Sequence record: MZ681930.1
Length of the DNA: 64,000 bases
From: Enterobacteria phage phiC600P9
Strand: one strand, 5' to 3'
Part shown: in pieces, positions 3,749 to 62,865 of the stretch
How positions within the stretch are numbered: the stretch's first letter is position 1
Layout of the letters: every line of letters starts with the position of its first letter
The notes under the pieces: generated by a model
Told to the model about the DNA's origin: nothing
Database searches by the model: none
What the model saw: only the letters and a program-made list of their open reading frames with translations
Program-made: the position numbers and the translations under genes

Positions 3749-4386
3749 TGAATGAACCCCAATTACTAATTGAAACTTGGGGTCAACCTGGCGAAATTAT
3801 TGATGGTGTGCCAATGCTTGAATCCCACGATGGAAAAGACTTAGGTTTAAAACCGGGTCTATACATCGAAGGAATATTCATGCAAGCAGAAGTCGTCAAT
3901 AGAAATAAACGTCTTTATCCAAAACGCATATTAGAAAAAGCGGTAAAAGACTATATTAATGAGCAAGTTTTAACTAAACAAGCTCTCGGAGAATTAAATC
4001 ATCCTCCACGCGCTAATGTTGACCCGATGCAAGCCGCTATCATTATAGAAGATATGTGGTGGAAAGGAAATGACGTATACGGACGAGCTCGTGTTATTGA
4101 AGGTGACCACGGTCCTGGAGATAAATTAGCAGCTAATATTCGTGCCGGATGGATTCCAGGAGTTTCTTCTCGTGGATTAGGTTCATTGACTGACACAAAT
4201 AAAGGTTATCGTATCGTAAACGAAGGATTCAAATTAACTGTAGGTGTTGATGCAGTATGGGGTCCAAGTGCTCCAGATGCATGGGTAACTCCTAAGGAAA
4301 TTACCGAATCACAGACGGCGGAAGCCGATACAAGTGCCGATGACGCCTATATGGCTCTCGCAGAGGCCATGAAAAAAGCGTTATAA
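3748..4386 (+). CDS. 21: Prohead core scaffold protein and protease gp21
   Basis: 212-aa ORF, same length and position as T4 gp21. Confidence 0.9.
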   Translation: MNEPQLLIETWGQPGEIIDGVPMLESHDGKDLGLKPGLYIEGIFMQAEVVNRNKRLYPKRILEKAVKDYINEQVLTKQALGELNHPPRANVDPMQAAIIIEDMWWKGNDVYGRARVIEGDHGPGDKLAANIRAGWIPGVSSRGLGSLTDTNKGYRIVNEGFKLTVGVDAVWGPSAPDAWVTPKEITESQTAEADTSADDAYMALAEAMKKAL

Positions 4387-6893: not shown

Positions 6894-8177
6894 ATGGCTA
6901 AAATCAACGAACTTCTGCGCGAATCAACCACAACGAATAGCAACTCAATCGGTCGCCCAAATCTCGTTGCTTTGACTCGCGCTACCACTAAATTAATATA
7001 TTCTGACATTGTAGCAACGCAAAGAACTAATCAACCTGTTGCTGCTTTTTATGGTATCAAATACCTTAACCCAGATAACGAATTTACATTTAAAACTGGT
7101 GCTACTTACGCTGGCGAAGCTGGGTACGTAGACCGAGAACAAATCACAGAATTAACAGAAGAGTCTAAATTAACTCTCAATAAAGGCGATTTATTCAAAT
7201 ATAATAATATCGTTTATAAAGTATTAGAAGATACACCATTTGCTGATATTGAAGAAAGCGATTTAGAATTAGCTCTTCAGATTGCAATTGTTCTTTTAAA
7301 GGTTCGTCTATTTTCTGATGCTGCAGTAACAAGCAAATTTGAAAGCTCTGATAGCGAAATTGCGGATGCTAGATTCCAGATTAATAAATGGCAAACCGCA
7401 GTTAAATCTCGTAAACTTAAAACTGGCATCACAGTTGAATTAGCGCAAGATTTAGAAGCAAATGGATTCGATGCTCCTAATTTCTTGGAAGATTTGCTTG
7501 CAACTGAAATGGCAGATGAAATCAATAAAGATATTCTGCAATCTTTGATTACAGTATCAAAACGCTATAAAGTTACAGGAATTACTGATACTGGATTCAT
7601 TGATTTGAGTTATGCATCTGCACCTGAAGCTGGTCGTTCATTATACCGAATGGTATGTGAAATGGTTTCGCATATCCAAAAAGAATCAACTTATACTGCA
7701 ACGTTCTGTGTTGCTTCAGCTCGTGCCGCTGCGATTCTTGCTGCATCAGGTTGGTTAAAACATAAACCAGAAGATGATAAATATCTTTCACAAAATGCCT
7801 ACGGGTTCTTAGCTAATGGTTTACCGCTTTATTGCGATACTAACAGCCCATTAGATTATGTAATCGTTGGTGTAGTAGAAAATATTGGCGAAAAAGAAAT
7901 TGTTGGATCAATTTTCTATGCTCCGTATACAGAAGGTCTTGACTTAGATGACCCTGAACATGTAGGTGCATTTAAAGTTGTAGTTGATCCAGAAAGCTTA
8001 CAACCATCTATCGGTTTATTGGTTAGATATGCTTTATCTGCAAATCCTTACACCGTAGCAAAAGATGAAAAAGAAGCAAGAATAATTGATGGTGGAGACA
8101 TGGATAAAATGGCGGGTCGTTCAGATTTGTCTGTTTTATTAGGTGTTAAATTACCAAAAATTATCGTTGATGAATAA
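6894..8177 (+). CDS. 24: Capsid vertex protein gp24
   Basis: 427-aa ORF, same length as T4 gp24, a gp23 paralogue by position and size. Confidence 0.93.
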   Translation: MAKINELLRESTTTNSNSIGRPNLVALTRATTKLIYSDIVATQRTNQPVAAFYGIKYLNPDNEFTFKTGATYAGEAGYVDREQITELTEESKLTLNKGDLFKYNNIVYKVLEDTPFADIEESDLELALQIAIVLLKVRLFSDAAVTSKFESSDSEIADARFQINKWQTAVKSRKLKTGITVELAQDLEANGFDAPNFLEDLLATEMADEINKDILQSLITVSKRYKVTGITDTGFIDLSYASAPEAGRSLYRMVCEMVSHIQKESTYTATFCVASARAAAILAASGWLKHKPEDDKYLSQNAYGFLANGLPLYCDTNSPLDYVIVGVVENIGEKEIVGSIFYAPYTEGLDLDDPEHVGAFKVVVDPESLQPSIGLLVRYALSANPYTVAKDEKEARIIDGGDMDKMAGRSDLSVLLGVKLPKIIVDE

Positions 8178-22317: not shown

Positions 22318-22350
22318 ATGGGGACCTTTCGGTCCCCATATTTTTATTTG
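22318..22350. terminator. Bidirectional terminator after gene 54
   Basis: Hairpin ggggacc-tttc-ggtcccc followed by atatttttattt. Confidence 0.7.
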
Positions 22351-22634
22351 CGGAATGAAATGAAAGCAGAAACTGAAGCAACTAAACTGTCTTCAATATA
22401 AACTTCAATTTTTACCGGAGCTTCTGACTCAAATTTACCTGTTACTACACCCTGAAAAATACTTTCAGTCTGTTCTGGCTTTGAAAAATTTTCAGAAGGA
22501 AAAATTCCGAACTTTTTATCTGTTCCAAAAATTTTAATAAATTCATCGTAAACCGCTTCGTTAAAAGCATTATCAGCAGGAATAACGCCTTCAACTACAA
22601 GTTCTTGACCTAAAAAGCGTAAAGAAGATTTCAT
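22344..22634 (-). CDS. Hypothetical early protein (T4 alt.-3 position)
   Basis: 96-aa ORF immediately downstream of a sigma70-type early promoter and a GAGGA SD. Confidence 0.6.
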   Translation of the reverse strand: MKSSLRFLGQELVVEGVIPADNAFNEAVYDEFIKIFGTDKKFGIFPSENFSKPEQTESIFQGVVTGKFESEAPVKIEVYIEDSLVASVSAFISFRK

Positions 22635-22640
22635 TTTGTG

Positions 22641-22700
22641 TTCCTCATGTTATGTCAGTAAGACTATTATAACACAACATAAGGAACTTGTAAACTACAT
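22641..22700 (-). promoter_or_regulatory. Early promoter cassette (GTTTACA, 17 nt spacer, TGtTATAATA) overlapping an imperfect inverted repeat
   Basis: Minus strand reads GTTTACAagttccttatgttgTGtTATAATAgtcttactgacataacatGAGGAacacaaaATG; the inverted repeat cctcatgtt/aacataagg flanks the -10. About 85 percent identical to the element at 38071-38130. Confidence 0.65.
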
Positions 22701-24752
22701 TTTGAACTTTTTAGACATTCCGTTAATGTTAACCAAAGAAGCTAAGATTTGAGAAACTTCGTTTTCCTCTTCTTTTGATTCTTCTACAAGGAATTGATTA
22801 AATCCAGCCATTGGACGAACTTCACCAGTTTCCATTAAATGGTCTCCATCATATACTGATTCTTCTAATTGTTCAGAAGGAGGAACGATTGCACCTTCGA
22901 TTAGATACTTGTTATAAGCAGTTTCTTTCATAAAGTACGTACTTACTTTATTAATCTTCAGTAAAATTCCACGCGGTAGAATAACTTCAGCTTCTGATGG
23001 AAATCCTGTTAAATGACCTGGAACGATAACTTTGATTCGCTCAGCTCCTTTAATTACCATACCCACTCTAGTTTCAGCATTTTCATTAGCGTATGTAGAA
23101 TGACTACCCATATGCATCAAATCTTCTGCATCAACGGAACCTTCTCCTTCACCAGAAAATACTGCGCCGGAATCATCTAAAGCCATATAGTTTTTACCAT
23201 GCTCGCCGAAGATATTTGGTTTAAGCGATGTAGATACGAAGTTCTTGAAATAGAACATTTTGTTTTCAATGTTATGACGCAAAGTTTTAAAGGTAACTTC
23301 TTGTCCACGGTAAAGTGTAGTTCCTGGAGGAAGAACTGAACCTTTAGCAAATGCAGAATCCAACGTCTCGATGTGTTTAATAGCTCGTTCCATATATTCT
23401 TCGCGGGTAGAATCAGGTTTACCCAAAAGGAACGAGTTCATTTCAACATATGAATCTGCACAATAATCTTCAATTACATCAGATTCAGCTTGAGTTAATC
23501 CTTTTGGAGTTACTTCGGTGCTTGCGTATTCATATGCCTGGGCAGCAGATTCATTAATCAATTTATAAATGCCATTCATTACAAATTGAATAATAGCTGT
23601 CTTTTCATCTGGCGTAGCTTTAGAACCTTTAACCAAATCATTGATAATTTTCTTAATAACATCAAAGCTATTAGAAATATTAATATCAGCAAGATCGCTT
23701 AAAATTTTATCAGTTTTATAATCAAAGAATTCTTTATTCTTTAAATATTCTTGAGAACCTTGATATGTTATATCGCTCTGCAACTTGATGGATGGATCAC
23801 GTAAACGTGCATGGGCTAATGCAATATGATTTCGGAAGTTTTCTAGTTCATAATCGCTAGATTTAAAACGAGAAGCACTTCTCATACCACCGATAGCTCC
23901 TTTGCTGAAGTTTGAACCAATCTGAATAACGCCAGAGTTCATTGGTCCTTCTGCTTTATATACCGGAACTTTAGATTCAAACTCTTGATATTTCTTGGCA
24001 GCGAAGCTATCACCCTGAAGTGAAGCATCAACAGTAGAATATTGAGCTTGTGCTGCTAATCGACGACTAATTTTAGTTTTCTGAATAACAGCTTGGTCCG
24101 TGCGCTTATCATTTTCTAAAGCAATAGAAGCAGCAACAGCGACAGCTTTAGGAACAGCATTACCTGTTTTAACGTCTACATAAACATCACCAACCTTTGA
24201 TTCAACTTTTGTGAATAACTCAGTTGAAATAGGAGGTACACCTGGAATGTCTTCTAAATTGGCATTTTTACGGTAAACCATAATATATGCATACTTTTTA
24301 TCATAGTCCCAGATTTCCTTTAAAAGAACATATCGACCTGCTCCTTTAGTACGTACTAAACGGTCAGCAATAACTTGCATTTGACGAGCAGCGCCATTTG
24401 TTTTACTCTTTAGTACACGGAATAAGCACGCGTCAATTTTATACTGTTTCATTGTTTGAAGAGCAGTATCAAAAACAGCATTAATGACGCCAATTGGATT
24501 TCCACCCAAGTTTCTAAGCTTAACCAGTGATAATTTCTCATTAACACCTATCATTACGATATGCATCATTTTATCGCCCGGCTTAACGTTTTTATTCGTA
24601 TCACCGCCAGAGGTGTATGTACAAAATCTAAATCCAGGAAGCACGCTTTCTTCGCCGGCTTGAATAGCAAAAATTTGTGGTATTTTATGCTTAGGATTTA
24701 AGTTAACAACCGGCGCCGAAGCGCCGTCAAATAATTCTGTAATAAGTTCCAT
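22695..24752 (-). CDS. Alt-like ADP-ribosyltransferase paralogue
   Basis: 685-aa ORF whose first ~230 aa are about 75 percent identical to the adjacent Alt; the C-terminal domain carries R/S-T-S/E-x-E ART motifs (LYRGQ, FVSTSL, SEAEVILPRG). Confidence 0.75.
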   Translation of the reverse strand: MELITELFDGASAPVVNLNPKHKIPQIFAIQAGEESVLPGFRFCTYTSGGDTNKNVKPGDKMMHIVMIGVNEKLSLVKLRNLGGNPIGVINAVFDTALQTMKQYKIDACLFRVLKSKTNGAARQMQVIADRLVRTKGAGRYVLLKEIWDYDKKYAYIMVYRKNANLEDIPGVPPISTELFTKVESKVGDVYVDVKTGNAVPKAVAVAASIALENDKRTDQAVIQKTKISRRLAAQAQYSTVDASLQGDSFAAKKYQEFESKVPVYKAEGPMNSGVIQIGSNFSKGAIGGMRSASRFKSSDYELENFRNHIALAHARLRDPSIKLQSDITYQGSQEYLKNKEFFDYKTDKILSDLADINISNSFDVIKKIINDLVKGSKATPDEKTAIIQFVMNGIYKLINESAAQAYEYASTEVTPKGLTQAESDVIEDYCADSYVEMNSFLLGKPDSTREEYMERAIKHIETLDSAFAKGSVLPPGTTLYRGQEVTFKTLRHNIENKMFYFKNFVSTSLKPNIFGEHGKNYMALDDSGAVFSGEGEGSVDAEDLMHMGSHSTYANENAETRVGMVIKGAERIKVIVPGHLTGFPSEAEVILPRGILLKINKVSTYFMKETAYNKYLIEGAIVPPSEQLEESVYDGDHLMETGEVRPMAGFNQFLVEESKEEENEVSQILASLVNINGMSKKFKM

Positions 24753-24755
24753 GAT

Positions 24756-26807
24756 TTATCCTTGAACGAACTTGTAAGGCATGTTTGCAATATCTATGCA
24801 AGACGCAATAATTCCAAGAGATGATTCTACTTTCTGTTTAACATTTGATGAAACAAATGATGCAAAGTCAACTCTATCTTCTATATCACCTGTCATTGTA
24901 ACCAATTCACCAGTTTCCATTAAATGGTCTCCGTCATAGATTACCGATTCGGTGAGCTCTTCCGTGGTCATAACTTCAGCTTGAATAAGCTTGTTGTTAG
25001 TTTTAACTGTTCCATCATTGTAAGATGCATCGGTTATTTTATTAACTTTGACCATTAATCCACGTGGCAAAATGACTTCCATTTCATTTGAAGGCGCTAA
25101 ACTTCCACCGGGTAAAACAACATTGACCTTATCAGCCCCAGTAATAACCCATCCAATTCCAACTAAATTATCGCTAGAATTTACTAGTCCTTCATCAGTT
25201 TTATCAATAGAAACACTTAGACGCTTTTCGTCTGGTAAAACACCTATAGATGAATCAGTCATCCAAGTACCAAAAATATTTGGATATAATGATGTTGACA
25301 CAAAGTTTCTAAAATAAAAAACTCGATTTTTTACCAATGCTTCATATATTGAAGGTAACATTCGCTGTGAACGATATAAAGTAATACCTTTTGGCAATCG
25401 ATCGCCATTTTTAAAGGCTGAATCTAAATTATCGATGGCTTGTTCTATTTCGGGTGCTGTCAAAATACTTGTACGCTCATCTGGATTATATAATCCCAAA
25501 AGAGCATTATTCATGTCTACATATCCTGAACCCACATATTCACGAATTCCGCGTTTTTGAGCCGGTGTGTATTTAGATGAATCTTTATTTTCGACTATAG
25601 AATGCAATGACCATCCAACGGTAAGAGCATATCCACGTAATTCTCTTCGAATAATCTTTGTTTTTATTGCATTCCAAGAATTTTGCACTAACTCATTTGC
25701 AGCATCTTGATTTAAATGCGAATGCTTGTTAATATTTCTTTCTAACCAAGCACTTTTATATTTTTCTAAAGTATCATCGACTATAGAAGCAATAGTTTCT
25801 AAAGTTTTTATTGAAGTAATAGATTCTTTTCGTAATCTTTCTAAAGCTTTATTTTTTATTTCTGCATTAACATCAGATTCTTTATCTTCAGGAATTATAG
25901 AAGCTTCTCTGAATGCCATCCCAGCTGTAACACTATTAAGAGCATTCTCTAGTGCAAATCCTGAAGTAGAAATTACCGTTAATTCATTAGAATCAGAAAT
26001 TAAAGGCGCGTCCGCTGGTTTATTTAATTCTGCCGCTGAAGCCTCAAATTTTTGAAACATCGGTGTTTCAAATCTAGAAGATTCCAATGACTGACTTTGT
26101 GCAATTGCTCTACGGGAAATTTTAACTTTAACGATTACAGCTTGGTCAGAACGTTTATCGTTTTCTTGCGCAATAGATGCTGCAATTGCCTCATTTTTAG
26201 TTACTTGAGCTCCAGTATCTTTATTGATATAAACATCACCGACCTTCGATTCAACTTTAGTAAAGAGCTCGGTACTAATTTCCGGAACTCCTGGAATGTC
26301 TTCTAGTGATACATTTTTGCGATGTATAAGAATATATGCATACTTTTTATCATAATCCCAGAGTTCCTTAAGAAGGACGTATCTGCCACCTGAACGACTA
26401 CGGATAAGTCTATCAGCAATAACTTGAATTTGTCGAGCTTGACCAGCGGTTTTAGACTTAAGAATACGAAGCATGCAGGCATCAATTTTATACTGGCGCA
26501 TTGTTTGCATTGCAACAGTAAAAACTGAATTGATATAATTAATTGGGCTTGGACCAAGACCTTTCAATTTAGCAATTGAACCTTTAGCAGTTAATGTAAA
26601 AGGAACAATGTGCATCATTTTATCGCCCATCTTTAAATCACGATTAGTATCACCTCCAGATGTATAGGTACATAAACGAAAGCCTGGTTGTTCAATTGCG
26701 TCATCAACATGAACTGAAAAAATTTGTGGTATTTTCTTCTTTGGATTTAAGTTTGTAATCGGAAGAGTAGTATCTTCGTCAAATAATTCTGTAATTAGTT
26801 CCATCAT
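24756..26807 (-). CDS. alt: Alt ADP-ribosyltransferase (virion-packaged, modifies host RNA polymerase)
   Basis: 683-aa ORF (682 from the second Met) beginning MELITELFDEDTTLPITNL, with ART motifs LYRSQ, FVSTSL, NEMEVILPRG; matches T4 Alt as recalled. Confidence 0.88.
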   Translation of the reverse strand: MMELITELFDEDTTLPITNLNPKKKIPQIFSVHVDDAIEQPGFRLCTYTSGGDTNRDLKMGDKMMHIVPFTLTAKGSIAKLKGLGPSPINYINSVFTVAMQTMRQYKIDACMLRILKSKTAGQARQIQVIADRLIRSRSGGRYVLLKELWDYDKKYAYILIHRKNVSLEDIPGVPEISTELFTKVESKVGDVYINKDTGAQVTKNEAIAASIAQENDKRSDQAVIVKVKISRRAIAQSQSLESSRFETPMFQKFEASAAELNKPADAPLISDSNELTVISTSGFALENALNSVTAGMAFREASIIPEDKESDVNAEIKNKALERLRKESITSIKTLETIASIVDDTLEKYKSAWLERNINKHSHLNQDAANELVQNSWNAIKTKIIRRELRGYALTVGWSLHSIVENKDSSKYTPAQKRGIREYVGSGYVDMNNALLGLYNPDERTSILTAPEIEQAIDNLDSAFKNGDRLPKGITLYRSQRMLPSIYEALVKNRVFYFRNFVSTSLYPNIFGTWMTDSSIGVLPDEKRLSVSIDKTDEGLVNSSDNLVGIGWVITGADKVNVVLPGGSLAPSNEMEVILPRGLMVKVNKITDASYNDGTVKTNNKLIQAEVMTTEELTESVIYDGDHLMETGELVTMTGDIEDRVDFASFVSSNVKQKVESSLGIIASCIDIANMPYKFVQG

Positions 26808-26827: not shown

Positions 26828-26835
26828 TATTTATA
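26828..26835 (-). promoter_or_regulatory. Late promoter TATAAATA upstream of alt
   Basis: Minus-strand TATAAATA about 20 nt upstream of the alt ATG, consistent with late expression of a packaged protein. Confidence 0.55.
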
Positions 26836-31175: not shown

Positions 31176-31243
31176 TTTTATTCTCCGAGATGTTTAATTG
31201 CGGTACAGGTATATAATATCATATCCTGTACCAAAGTAAACAA

Positions 31244-31576
31244 TTATTTTACTACTTTCCAGTGCTGCATGTCAAGTTTACCAACTTTTTTCATCTTCTC
31301 AATTAAGCGTTCGGCACGTTGGCGAGCTGTAACATAATACCATTCACCCAACTCATTTTGTTCAATTTTTCCAACGATTACCGTATTCAGTTCATAAATC
31401 CAACCAGTAAAGAAATTATGAACTTGGATTGTAAAGGTGAAATCTGTTCCCATACCTTCTGTTGTTTCTACTTCAATAATATCACCTTCAACTGCCATTA
31501 AGAACCACATAGTTTCATCATATTTACCATTGAAGCATTTAGTTTTAACTGTGGCGTTCAGATTAATCGTTTTCAT
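31244..31576 (-). CDS. Hypothetical early protein (30.x cluster)
   Basis: 110-aa ORF. Confidence 0.55.
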   Translation of the reverse strand: MKTINLNATVKTKCFNGKYDETMWFLMAVEGDIIEVETTEGMGTDFTFTIQVHNFFTGWIYELNTVIVGKIEQNELGEWYYVTARQRAERLIEKMKKVGKLDMQHWKVVK

Positions 31577-31686
31577 TTTATTCTCCTTTGTTTGTGTAAG
31601 ATAATACTATCACAAAGGAACCATACTGTAAACAACTTTGTGCAATCTTTGGAAAATAAAAAAGGACTCCCGAAGGAGTCCTTAAC

Positions 31687-37223: not shown

Positions 37224-37573
37224 TTAGAAAGTTCCTGGATGTCTTCTGCGAACTTGTTGAAGGAGTTGTTGATTTGTTTTTCAACCAATCCTGGCTTATG
37301 AGCCACCACATCCGCCTTCTTTGCATCTTTGCGCAGTTTTTCATTTTCACGCTCAATAGCAGCAATTGCCTCACGATTTTTATTATTCATCGCATCAATA
37401 TAATTATACTGAATTCGCAAATTATCTAATGCTAAAGCGTTTTCATTGGCCGTTTTTGTAATTTCAGTAACTGATGTTTCTAATCTTTCTACCTTATTTT
37501 TTAAAATAATAGATGTTCCGCCAAATGCTATTACAAGTAATAGCAATCCAGCTGTAAAATTACTTACATGCAT
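37220..37573 (-). CDS. Inner-membrane spanin component (i-spanin, pseT.3-like)
   Basis: 117-aa ORF with an N-terminal transmembrane helix (LLLLVIAFGGTSIIL) followed by a coiled-coil-like segment. Confidence 0.65.
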   Translation of the reverse strand: MHVSNFTAGLLLLVIAFGGTSIILKNKVERLETSVTEITKTANENALALDNLRIQYNYIDAMNNKNREAIAAIERENEKLRKDAKKADVVAHKPGLVEKQINNSFNKFAEDIQELSK

Positions 37574-38067
37574 AAAGTTTTAATAACCTCTACAATATCG
37601 TCTTGAGAAAGACCGTTAATTAAAATATGATGTTCAGCTGGAGATTTAGAAATTTTAAAGCATGCCTCAACATCTTCTGCCATATCTGATGCACTACGAT
37701 TTGGATTACTAATTCCAAGACGATGCTTTTCTGTCAAAGGATTAACGATGATGTAGCATTTACAGTTATTGATATGAACATTAGGTTGAGTCTGATTAAT
37801 GAACACTTCACAATCATATTTCGCAAGCTGATTTTCTAAAAAGACTTTCATCTCCTCGACTGCATCAGGAAGCATATCACGGGCTTGCTCAAGACGACGA
37901 TTTCGATATTCTTTAATGGTCGTTTTCCGCTTGACTTGCTTAGCTAAATCTTTCTTAAGATCAGTGATATATCCAACTCGACGATTTCCTTTGAATACAG
38001 AAATCCCATCTGTAGTATCACCGTATGCTTCAACGACCATTTCAGTAGTAATAAGCTGTAAATCCAT
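37564..38067 (-). CDS. alc: Alc, inhibitor of host transcription on cytosine-containing DNA
   Basis: 167 aa from the second Met, same length and position (between rnlA and pseT) as T4 Alc. Confidence 0.75.
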   Translation of the reverse strand: MDLQLITTEMVVEAYGDTTDGISVFKGNRRVGYITDLKKDLAKQVKRKTTIKEYRNRRLEQARDMLPDAVEEMKVFLENQLAKYDCEVFINQTQPNVHINNCKCYIIVNPLTEKHRLGISNPNRSASDMAEDVEACFKISKSPAEHHILINGLSQDDIVEVIKTLCM

Positions 38068-38070
38068 CAT

Positions 38071-38130
38071 AAAGTCCTCGTGTTATGTCAGTAAGACTAC
38101 TGTAACACAACACGAGGGACTTGTAAACAG
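38071..38130 (-). promoter_or_regulatory. Early promoter cassette (GTTTACA, spacer, TGtTACAGTA) within an inverted repeat
   Basis: Minus strand reads GTTTACAagtccctcgtgttgTGtTACAGTAgtcttactgacataacacGAGGActttATG; perfect inverted repeat cctcgtgtt/aacacgagg; second copy of the element at 22641-22700. Confidence 0.65.
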
Positions 38131-38131
38131 C

Positions 38132-39719
<1,588 letters not shown>

Positions 39720-46636: not shown

Positions 46637-47587
46637 GTTATTTTCCTCTTTAATCATCATCAGCAGTATTGCCGATAGTTGTATAGTACCACAGTATGCT
46701 TTGAGGTCCGTGTCATCAGCACTAGATGAACTGCCAGAGCTTGAGCTCATAAAATCATCTTCAGTTTTTGTTTTGAAGTCATCAACATTGAATGCATCCA
46801 AATCATCAGCAACTTTATCGGCTTTCTTAGCAGCAGTTGCTGCGGCACCACCCATAGCAGCAGTTCCCATAACTTGACTGAACTTAGTGCTCAGTTCTTC
46901 AAACGATTTGAATTTATCTTTAGAAGTCATTTCAGAAAGGTCAACCATCTGTTCAAACAGTTCTTTCTGGAAAGATTCATCATCAATGTTTGGAATCGCA
47001 GATTGATTCAGGAATTTAGATTCGTCGTAGTTACTAAAACCAGAAACTTGTTTAACTTTCAGTACAAAGTTAGCACCTTCCCACGGACAAGTTACATCAA
47101 CCGGAGTTTCACCCATTTCAACATCAACTGCAATCATTGCATTGATTTTATCCCAGATTTTCTTACCAAAACGGTATTTAAATACTTTACCTTCATTTTC
47201 TGGAGCAGCTGGGTCTTTTACTACAAGAATGTTAGCCCAATAAGAAGTTTTGCGTTTAACAAGACTGTACTCTTTATTGTCAGTGTTGTACAAATCATTT
47301 TTACTGATATACTGACATACTGGACAAGAATCGTAATCACCGTGGGTAGATGAACAGTTTTCAATATACCATTTACCATTTTTCTTGAAACCGTGATTTA
47401 CAAGAATTGCGAATGGTGCTTGTTCATCATTTTTAGACGGAAGAAAACGAATTACTGCTTGACCGTTACCCGCATTGTCGAGTTTCAGTTTCCACTCGCC
47501 TTTATCTTCAGAAGAAAAACCACCTTTATTTCCAGCCAGTTTAGCCATTTGTGCAGCGAGTTCAGCAGTAGATTTACGTTTAAACAT
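46409..47587 (-). CDS. 32: Single-stranded DNA-binding protein gp32, as encoded here without its own stop codon (392-aa read-through ORF)
   Basis: The first 294 aa match T4 gp32 as recalled (zinc site, OB fold, serine-rich tail [15 protein letters not shown]), but the expected ending DDLLNDL-stop is replaced by ...[22 protein letters not shown] and the frame continues into the next ORF. Confidence 0.8.
46674..46703. repeat. 30-nt motif gatagttgtatagtaccacagtatgctttg, copy A, at the gene 32 3' junction
   Basis: 29 of 30 nt identical to 62836-62865; partial matches at 39281-39293 and 32586-32609. Confidence 0.8.
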
Positions 47588-49848: not shown

Positions 49849-49910
49849 ATGAACCTCGTTCAATTAGTGAGATTTCTATTATATACCATCCAAATCTTAA
49901 AGTAAACAAG

Positions 49911-62802: not shown

Positions 62803-62835
62803 TTTCTAATCTCCGTAATTCTGTATCAGTAGTTG

Positions 62836-62865
62836 ATAGTTGTATAGTACCACAGAATGCTTTGG
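62836..62865. repeat. 30-nt motif gatagttgtatagtaccacagaatgctttg, copy B, upstream of motA and adjacent to a hairpin
   Basis: 29 of 30 nt identical to 46674-46703; immediately followed by hairpin ggagagc-cgag-gctctcc at 62865-62882. Confidence 0.8.

Follow-up and report, generated by a model that had tools for sequence, protein, structure and literature searches.

An early promoter nested in a predicted Shine–Dalgarno-masking hairpin, present in two copies upstream of alt.-3 and alc in the Tequatrovirus phage phiC600P9

The cassette pair and its promoters

Enterobacteria phage phiC600P9 (MZ681930.1) is a Tequatrovirus with T6 and RB32 as relatives. In a 64,000-nucleotide stretch of its genome (hereafter the window) we analysed two near-identical early promoter regions on the minus strand, one between alt.-2 and the early gene alt.-3 and the other between rnlA (gene 63) and alc, each of which contains an inverted repeat that reaches the SD (Shine–Dalgarno) sequence of the downstream gene (Table 1). 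An initial annotation had described them as a duplicated cassette at 22641-22700 and 38071-38130 with about 85% identity. The repeat is real, and a repeat search (family D6) refined its limits to 22642-22695 and 38075-38128, where 48 of 54 nt (89%) are identical. Aligned, the copies formed one identity block from GTTTACA to GAGGA with sharp edges, and the flanks of the two are unrelated. Upstream, the alt.-2 stop codon TAG (22695-22697) overlaps the G preceding the -35 hexamer of copy 1, and the rnlA stop codon occupies 38132-38134 ahead of copy 2.

Both copies are intergenic and scored as sigma-70 promoters; in each, the spacer is 17 nt long and a TG precedes the -10 hexamer. The promoter scan thus confirmed the minus-strand layout proposed earlier, namely GTTTACA, a 17-nt spacer, TGT plus TATAAT, an SD and the ATG. 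In each copy GAGGA is followed by an ATG, and for alc the start annotated in T4 is the second of two ATGs (38065-38067). With GTTTACA, TGT before the -10, CTTAC near +1 and the GAGGA SD, the copies resemble the generic T4 early promoter consensus, and these elements also occur in other early promoters of the window and of related phages. The similarity of the two copies could have been limited to that consensus, as the initial annotation had allowed; the comparison gave a different answer. When 16 promoter-like window sites were compared in register, the cassette pair shared 48/54 positions, whereas the runner-up pair shared 34/54 (mean 21.4, standard deviation 4.5) and no other pair exceeded it. 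Outside both hexamers the values were 37/41 for the cassettes and 23 for the runner-up. Thus the likeness goes far beyond the T4 early-promoter consensus. In addition, the leader 19-mer TAGTCTTACTGACATAACA occurred exactly twice in the window, against a chance expectation of 0.05.

The likeness does not extend to the genes. Pfam analysis assigned the four flanking proteins to ADP-ribosyltransferase, DUF5498, RNA ligase 1 and ALC, which are mutually unrelated, and BLASTP gave no alignment between Alt.-3 (DUF5498) and Alc (PF17527). Only the regulatory cassette is common to the two loci, as had been supposed. The cassette was found in about 500 Tequatrovirus records, with two copies in almost every record listed, and T4 carries the same two copies with 53/54 positions identical.

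Table 1. Features of the two cassettes and of related sites in the window
Feature	Position	Strand	Remarks
Cassette copy 1 (GTTTACA ... GAGGA)	22642..22695	-	Between alt.-2 and alt.-3; covariance model R1, 88.1 bits
-35 hexamer TTTACA, copy 1	22689..22694	-	11/12 consensus matches, 17-nt spacer, TG(T) before -10
-10 hexamer TATAAT, copy 1	22666..22671	-	Predicted +1 = A at 22659, from the usual 7-nt spacing
Hairpin 1, 5' arm GUUCCUUAUGUUGUGUUAUAA	22667..22687	-	Promoter spacer and most of -10; predicted fold -24.1 kcal/mol, z = -4.85
Hairpin 1, 3' arm UUA-C-UGACAUAACAUGAGGAAC	22640..22661	-	Takes in SD GAGG 22643-22646
alt.-3 (DUF5498, 96 aa)	22344..22634	-	Early gene served by copy 1; start codon 22632-22634
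Bidirectional terminator-like hairpin, alt.-3/gene 54	22318..22339	.	Sole one near cassette 1; downstream of alt.-3
Late promoter TATAAATA	26828..26835	-	20 nt upstream of alt; terminator hairpin before it
Cassette copy 2	38075..38128	-	Between rnlA (gene 63) stop and alc; covariance model R1, 94.4 bits
-35 hexamer TTTACA, copy 2	38122..38127	-	From the promoter scan
-10 hexamer TACAGT, copy 2 (T4: TATAGT)	38099..38104	-	Predicted +1 = A at 38092
Hairpin 2, 5' arm AAGUCC-C-UCGUGUUGUGU	38105..38122	-	Promoter spacer; predicted fold -30.4 kcal/mol, z = -5.59
Hairpin 2, 3' arm ACAUAACACGAGGACUU	38072..38088	-	Takes in SD GAGG 38076-38079
alc (PF17527)	37564..38070	-	Downstream of copy 2; ATGs 38068-38070 and 38065-38067
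Middle-promoter-like site upstream of rnlA	39283..39308	-	MotA-box TGCTT 39304-39308; TACTAT 39283-39288, 13 nt after TGCTTCC
Third early promoter, same design, unrelated stem	31574..31633	-	Covariance model R1, 21.3 bits, E = 0.036; upstream of gp30.8 homologue (31244-31576)

A predicted hairpin joining promoter spacer and ribosome-binding site

The inverted repeat in each cassette had been noted with arms of 9 nt. It is real but longer than that, spanning about 21 bp in copy 1 and 17-22 bp in copy 2. For the minus-sense RNA, folding predicted a 21-bp stem with one bulge in copy 1, and a 17-bp main stem with a small apical stem in copy 2. In both, the 5' arm begins directly after the -35 hexamer and runs through the spacer into the -10, and the 3' arm extends from about +3 through the SD, so that four of the four SD nucleotides pair with the spacer in the predicted folds. 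Since the 5' arm lies in the spacer and -10 region, it is absent from RNA begun at the cassette's own promoter, and RNA starting just upstream of the predicted +1 was calculated to be essentially unstructured (0 and -0.2 kcal/mol).

The reading that we favour, with moderate confidence, is that each cassette is a sigma-70-type early promoter nested in an RNA hairpin that acts as a translational insulator. The 5' arm would supply an anti-SD in the spacer after the -35, the -10 would sit at the stem top or in the loop, and the 3' arm would consist of the leader and the SD. Polymerase coming from the alt late promoter, via alt.-2, or from the middle-type promoter of rnlA would transcribe both arms; the resulting hairpin of 18-21 bp would bury the SD, and alt.-3 and alc would stay untranslated from these longer, later transcripts. 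RNA from the cassette promoter would start about 7 nt after the -10, and its ribosome-binding site would be open. Since RNA made from there has no 5' arm, the downstream gene would depend for its translation on its own early promoter. By its calculated stability, a hairpin of -24 to -30 kcal/mol over the SD should strongly inhibit 30S binding; masking in T4 gene e cuts lysozyme synthesis about 100-fold (PMC3014915). We also considered translational coupling through a ribosome terminating on the upstream gene, and judged it unlikely from the size of the ribosome footprint, with the hairpin starting 8-11 nt past the upstream stop codon.

Candidate sources of read-through RNA lie upstream of both cassettes. 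The alt.-2 gene follows alt after a 3-nt gap, and the TATAAATA late promoter would give rise to late transcripts running from alt through alt.-2 and cassette 1 into alt.-3. Judged from its MotA-box and -10-like motifs, the middle-type site upstream of rnlA is the likely source of transcripts crossing cassette 2. A terminator scan found no terminator-like site between alt.-2 and cassette 1 or between rnlA and cassette 2. In time-resolved omics of T4 infection, alc and alt.-3 were early at both the RNA and the protein level, the alt.-1 and alt.-2 RNAs were middle, alt was late and the RnlA protein was late (PMC9697503).

The closest known systems are the masked late genes of T4, e (lysozyme), soc, 49 and the I-TevI gene, together with I-TevII, I-TevIII, segB and mobE of Aeh1. 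For e, soc, 49 and I-TevI it is experimentally established that the SD is held in a stable helix on long read-through RNA and that the transcript of a nested promoter escapes (PMC3014915, PMC2988022). The cassettes resemble these genes in having the SD inside a stable predicted helix (-24.1 and -30.4 kcal/mol), and an internal promoter whose transcript, from its predicted start, lacks the 5' arm. The result would be alike too, namely translation coupled to one temporal promoter class. The cassettes differ in that the internal promoter is a sigma-70 early promoter serving early genes and the masked RNA would come from promoters of later classes, so that the temporal logic is inverted. According to the reviews, all of the known cases are late genes with late or middle internal promoters, and alc and alt.-3 are not listed (PMC2988022, PMC3014915). 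A conserved, co-varying hairpin predicted to mask the SD around an early promoter is a new addition, although both parent concepts have been published and no new kind of mechanism is involved. If the reading is correct, one structural device serves T4-like phages in both temporal directions: its known role of keeping late genes silent early would be joined by a new one, in which early genes such as that of the host-shutoff factor Alc are kept silent on middle and late read-through RNA. This would help to explain the sharp temporal classes seen at the protein level in dense phage genomes with few terminators. It would also provide a compact, portable 54-nt module (strong promoter, leader and insulator) of possible use in phage engineering.

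Selection on the stem and competing explanations

Tequatrovirus variants of the two copies were collected from IMG/VR, from metagenomes and from phages in GenBank. In ten distinct variants, 140 of 140 stem cells were standard pairs. Eight stem positions varied among the sampled genomes, and seven of them kept pairing through G-C, G.U and A-U interchange; one pair, for example, is G-C in the alc copy of the window, G.U in most genomes and A-U in others. A single variant, found in one genome (HEMP5), breaks a stem pair. At cassette position 11, a T was present only in alt.-3 copies (4/15), where it forms a U-A pair with the alt.-3-specific flank GGAAC, and thus the stem appears to be tuned to its locus.

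The same layout was present upstream of alc in other Tevenvirinae genera. Among the regions retrieved, it was found in Gelderlandvirus STP4-a, Karamvirus UFV01, Jiaodavirus TU02 and KP179, Dhakavirus IME341, Kanagawavirus CIP9 and Entb_45, and phage Biddle, which make up six non-Tequatrovirus lineages in total. In these six, an anti-SD 5' arm comes immediately after GTTTACA, the alc SD forms the 3' arm and the loop contains the -10. The stems between rnlA and alc differ by lineage (UCUCCGUUU/AAACGGAGA, UCCUCGUCAG/CUGAUGAGGA, UCUCCUCAU/AUGAGGAGA, CCUCGUUUGUU/AACAAACGAGG and UCCCCAUUUU.../...AAAAUGGGGA), and the fold z-scores of the hairpins in the other lineages ranged from -2.9 to -7.1. Across seven lineages, the energy of the spacer-leader duplex averaged -19.8 kcal/mol for cognate pairings versus -11.1 kcal/mol for non-cognate ones, and only one of the 5040 permutations of spacer-leader pairings equalled the cognate total. 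When pairs were counted inward from the SD, 10 of 11 positions showed several canonical pair types. When alc leaders from several genera were aligned with MAFFT, RNAalifold produced no meaningful consensus, since alignment by sequence puts the stems out of register; per-sequence folds, the matrix of cognate and non-cognate duplexes and the SD-anchored pair counts were used instead. An alignment made with a covariance model pushed the other genera into the Tequatrovirus register and was left out of the pair counts. The cross-genus co-variation is stronger evidence for selection on the hairpin than the variation within Tequatrovirus.

These data bear directly on whether the hairpin has any function beyond that of the promoter. 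A recent duplication of a strong early promoter, with the hairpin carried along by accident, would fit the close similarity of the copies in T4 (53/54) and the fact that the alt.-3 copy is younger than the genus split. However, the alc hairpin has been kept with compensatory changes over seven lineages, seven of the eight stem positions that vary in Tequatrovirus retain pairing, and the stem is lengthened by one change specific to alt.-3. We therefore disfavour this explanation, which seems highly improbable.

The structure could alternatively act in DNA. As a palindrome spanning the -10 it might bind a regulator or extrude as a cruciform and thereby alter promoter strength or shut-off, or it might be a hot spot for recombination. 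Consistent with this, inverted repeats that have one arm in the spacer occur in five of the seven early promoters of the window, and the two strands fold equally well outside Tequatrovirus. Within Tequatrovirus, in contrast, G.U pairs at several stem positions render the structure sense-strand-specific, and folding of the sense strand is more favourable than that of the antisense strand by 4-10 kcal/mol. Furthermore, the stem sequences vary by genus and by gene and leave no common operator sequence, the two copies show no excess similarity within genomes, and a DNA element gives no reason for the 3' arm being the SD. We consider a DNA-level role very unlikely.

Another reading concerns transcription. 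The stem-loop may be an attenuator or terminator, or a stabilizer of the 3' end of the upstream gene, with its overlap of the SD being incidental. Such a role was proposed for the PeSL (promoter early stem-loop) cassettes, which comprise an AT-rich stretch, sigma-70-like -35 and -10 elements (TTTACW N17 TAYWAT in T4/PST), a stem-loop, an SD and an ATG, and which are repeated upstream of unrelated genes (Arbiol et al. 2010, PMC2839356; Comeau et al. 2014, PMC4122927). Our cassettes are alike in their intergenic TTTACA N17 TATAAT and TTTACA N17 TACAGT promoters, in the SD and start codon at the 3' end and in their repetition before unrelated genes (89% identity in the window, 53/54 in T4). PeSL stem-loops of RB49 terminated transcription in reporter assays (PMC2839356), the hairpins described here begin close to the upstream stop codon, and other early promoters of the window (31240, 34803 and 45983) bear hairpins that stop short of the SD. 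However, the published stem-loop lies just upstream of the promoter and acts as a terminator, whereas the cassette stem encloses the -10, has no U-tract and has the SD as its 3' arm. No lineage has a U-tract after the stem, and the intrinsic terminator scan gave nothing at either cassette, the tails being AACACAAAAUG and CUUUAUGAUG. Moreover, in seven lineages the 3' arm is always the SD and the 5' arm is always an anti-SD after the -35, neither of which a simple 3'-end hairpin needs. We regard an attenuator or 3'-end element as unlikely. Should the insulator reading hold, the stem-loop part of the PeSL cassettes would have to be reinterpreted.

A long duplex could also be a processing site for RNase III or another double-strand-specific enzyme, which would cut the read-through RNA and destroy the ribosome-binding site, with the same outcome for expression as masking. 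RNase III requires a stem of sufficient length, and the Tequatrovirus stems, at 20-22 bp with a single bulge, are long enough. The stems of the other genera, however, are about 9-17 bp with internal loops and thus short for the enzyme, and we give this possibility little weight. The initial annotation had raised the possibility of a processing or attenuation hairpin; the evidence points instead to a conserved, co-varying hairpin that masks the SD in read-through RNA and that the cassette's own transcript escapes.

Two further candidates were rejected. In an Rfam scan of the whole window no family reached its gathering threshold, and the lone sub-threshold match, to a plant microRNA precursor model, was a chance one (18 bits against a gathering score of 135). 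A RegB site was dismissed on reading the leaders, as GGAG is missing from those of Tequatrovirus (CAUGAGGAA and CACGAGGAC in the window, CAUGAGGAC in T4 alc).

Several points weigh against translational insulation. The position of the transcription start, the read-through and the translational masking are all inferred, the middle promoter of rnlA is deduced from its sequence alone, and we know of no biological reason for blocking the synthesis of Alc or Alt.-3 at later times. The anti-SD-like CCUC of the spacer makes part of the complementarity unavoidable, and the registers of the SD-anchored pair table were taken from the structures, a choice that favours pairing. Nearly all stem pairs outside Tequatrovirus are Watson-Crick and both strands fold equally well, so that strand asymmetry cannot there tell an RNA hairpin from a DNA palindrome. 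Finally, an SD-masking stem is missing upstream of alc in Mosigvirus, Gaprivervirus VR20, Aeromonas phage 31 and an Acinetobacter Lazarusvirus phage. The hairpin is thus dispensable, and widespread rather than universal.

Origin of the alt.-3 copy and related promoters

In six other genera and in Mosigvirus HX01, alt.-3 is preceded by an early promoter of a different type, with the -35 overlapping the alt stop codon and a small hairpin confined to the spacer (e.g. ACACCAC-AAGGA-UGUGGU) that leaves the SD free. The loop of this type is AAGGA or UGGA, and its stems co-vary (ACACCAC/GUGGU, GCAC/GUGC, ACACA/UGUGU and ACACC/GGUGU). As this hairpin lies upstream of +1, it can act only in DNA or in read-through RNA. 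The alc-type cassette was found upstream of alt.-3 only in Tequatrovirus, whereas the alc layout is present in six other lineages, indicating that the alc cassette is ancestral and was copied to alt.-3. The native alt.-3 leader ends AACATGAGGAAaACAAAATG; it and the alc cassette have GTTTACAA in common at one end and AACATGAGGA at the other. In the simplest history, the alc cassette would have replaced the alt.-3 promoter core in the Tequatrovirus ancestor by recombination in these short shared sequences. The junctions were probably GTTTACAA and AACATGAGGA, in an exchange of the PeSL type. For PeSL cassettes, exchange by homologous recombination has been proposed, and in RB49 and phi1 the mapped crossover points fell between the -10 and the SD or ATG (PMC2839356, PMC4122927).

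Mosigvirus provides further pieces of this kind. Its alc promoter is of the spacer-hairpin type otherwise seen at alt.-3. In HX01 the 3' half of the cassette (TAGTCCTACTGA..AACATGAGGAACACAAAATG) stands upstream of an unrelated 66-aa ORF (open reading frame) in the denB-ndd region (1483-1543 of one retrieved stretch and 4080-4147 of a second), where it matches the end of the Tequatrovirus alt.-3 leader at 20/20 positions and has a different stem, GUAGGAUUA/UAGUCCUAC, around the -10. Together, the promoter type and the HX01 half-cassette point to shuffling of regulatory pieces.

Ongoing exchange between the two copies was not evident. In 15 genomes with both copies, the distance between the copies was 2.07 within genomes versus 2.13 between genomes (permutation p = 0.47), and nine genome pairs likewise gave no signal of concerted evolution or gene conversion (p = 0.36). 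Locus-specific variants were present among the 15 genomes, with T11 only at alt.-3 and C27 only at alc; polymorphisms common to both copies (cassette positions 15, 16, 29 and 32) may reflect either recurrent transitions or rare conversions. Because the copies are direct repeats, crossing over between them would remove 15.4 kb, including the DNA ligase gene and, presumably, by T4 gene order, gene 31. The search for further copies showed the pair to be Tequatrovirus-wide and yielded only one third copy, in phage vB_EcoM-G28. There, a 351-bp tandem duplication (590-1060 of the retrieved stretch) repeats the 3' end of rnlA, the cassette and the first ~45 codons of alc, giving a truncated alc ORF; as a plain tandem duplication it was rejected as a case of cassette mobility. 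In Gaprivervirus VR20 (7-240 of the retrieved stretch) an ORF annotated as Alc-like lies directly upstream of the full alc with no cassette between them, which recalls the G28 duplication. IMG/VR was scanned with exact 16-mers and metagenomes with a gapped pattern; most matches were chance ones in unrelated contigs, the expected T4-like copies were also recovered, and no new Tequatrovirus insertion sites were found. The mobile, recombining cassette of the initial annotation is thus supported as history, with at least one transfer between loci (alc to alt.-3) that fits the PeSL pattern (PMC2839356, PMC4122927), but not as current activity; neither recent exchanges nor mini-circles, as associated with PeSL cassettes, are evident for the alc/alt.-3 pair.

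The design recurs elsewhere in the window. A covariance model (R1) built from the Tequatrovirus copies was used to search it and detected a third early promoter, upstream of a gp30.8 homologue, with an unrelated stem. Its GTTTACA is followed by the spacer UUCCUUUGU, which pairs with the SD region ACAAAGGAG (-12.1 kcal/mol, z = -2.1). At the equivalent gp30.8 site of Mosigvirus HX01, an anti-SD TCTCC stands directly after the -35 (position 7298 of the retrieved stretch). The spacer scan took in the seven window early promoters with a nearby gene start: spacer-SD pairing was found in three of them (alc, alt.-3 and the gp30.8 homologue), and five had a stable hairpin (z at or below -2.1) whose 5' arm lies in the spacer. 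At the minus-strand GTTTAC promoters with the -35 at 31240, 34803 and 45983, stable inverted repeats run from a 5' arm in the spacer to a 3' arm that directly follows the -10; examples are GGUAGAGU...GCUCUACC (z = -5.9) and GGUACAGGAUAU...AUAUACCUGUACC (z = -4.8). The inverted repeat of the promoter with the -35 at 49906 is weak (z = +0.8). The counts from the spacer scan suggest that embedded stems generally characterize these early promoters, with the alc type as the subset that reaches the SD. It is conceivable, though on balance doubtful, that promoter-embedded hairpins are a general design of Tevenvirinae early promoters and that the stem-loops of T4-type PeSL cassettes are discriminators of transcript origin rather than terminators, moving with the promoter as a portable module for early-only expression.

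Two further duplications were observed in the window. Upstream of cassette 1, two full-length Alt-like ADP-ribosyltransferase genes lie in tandem on the minus strand (22695-24752, alt.-2, and 24756-26807) and are ~72% identical in long stretches (families D1, D2 and D8); in T4, the second Alt-like gene is reduced to the remnants alt.-1 and alt.-2. A 30-nt repeat with 97% identity occurs at 46674-46703 and 62835-62864, reading CAAAGCAT(A/T)CUGUGGUACUAUACAACUAUC on the minus strand. Its core, TGTGGTACTATA, is also found in the promoter region of rnlA (compare 39281-39297), and the repeat may be another duplicated promoter and leader element.

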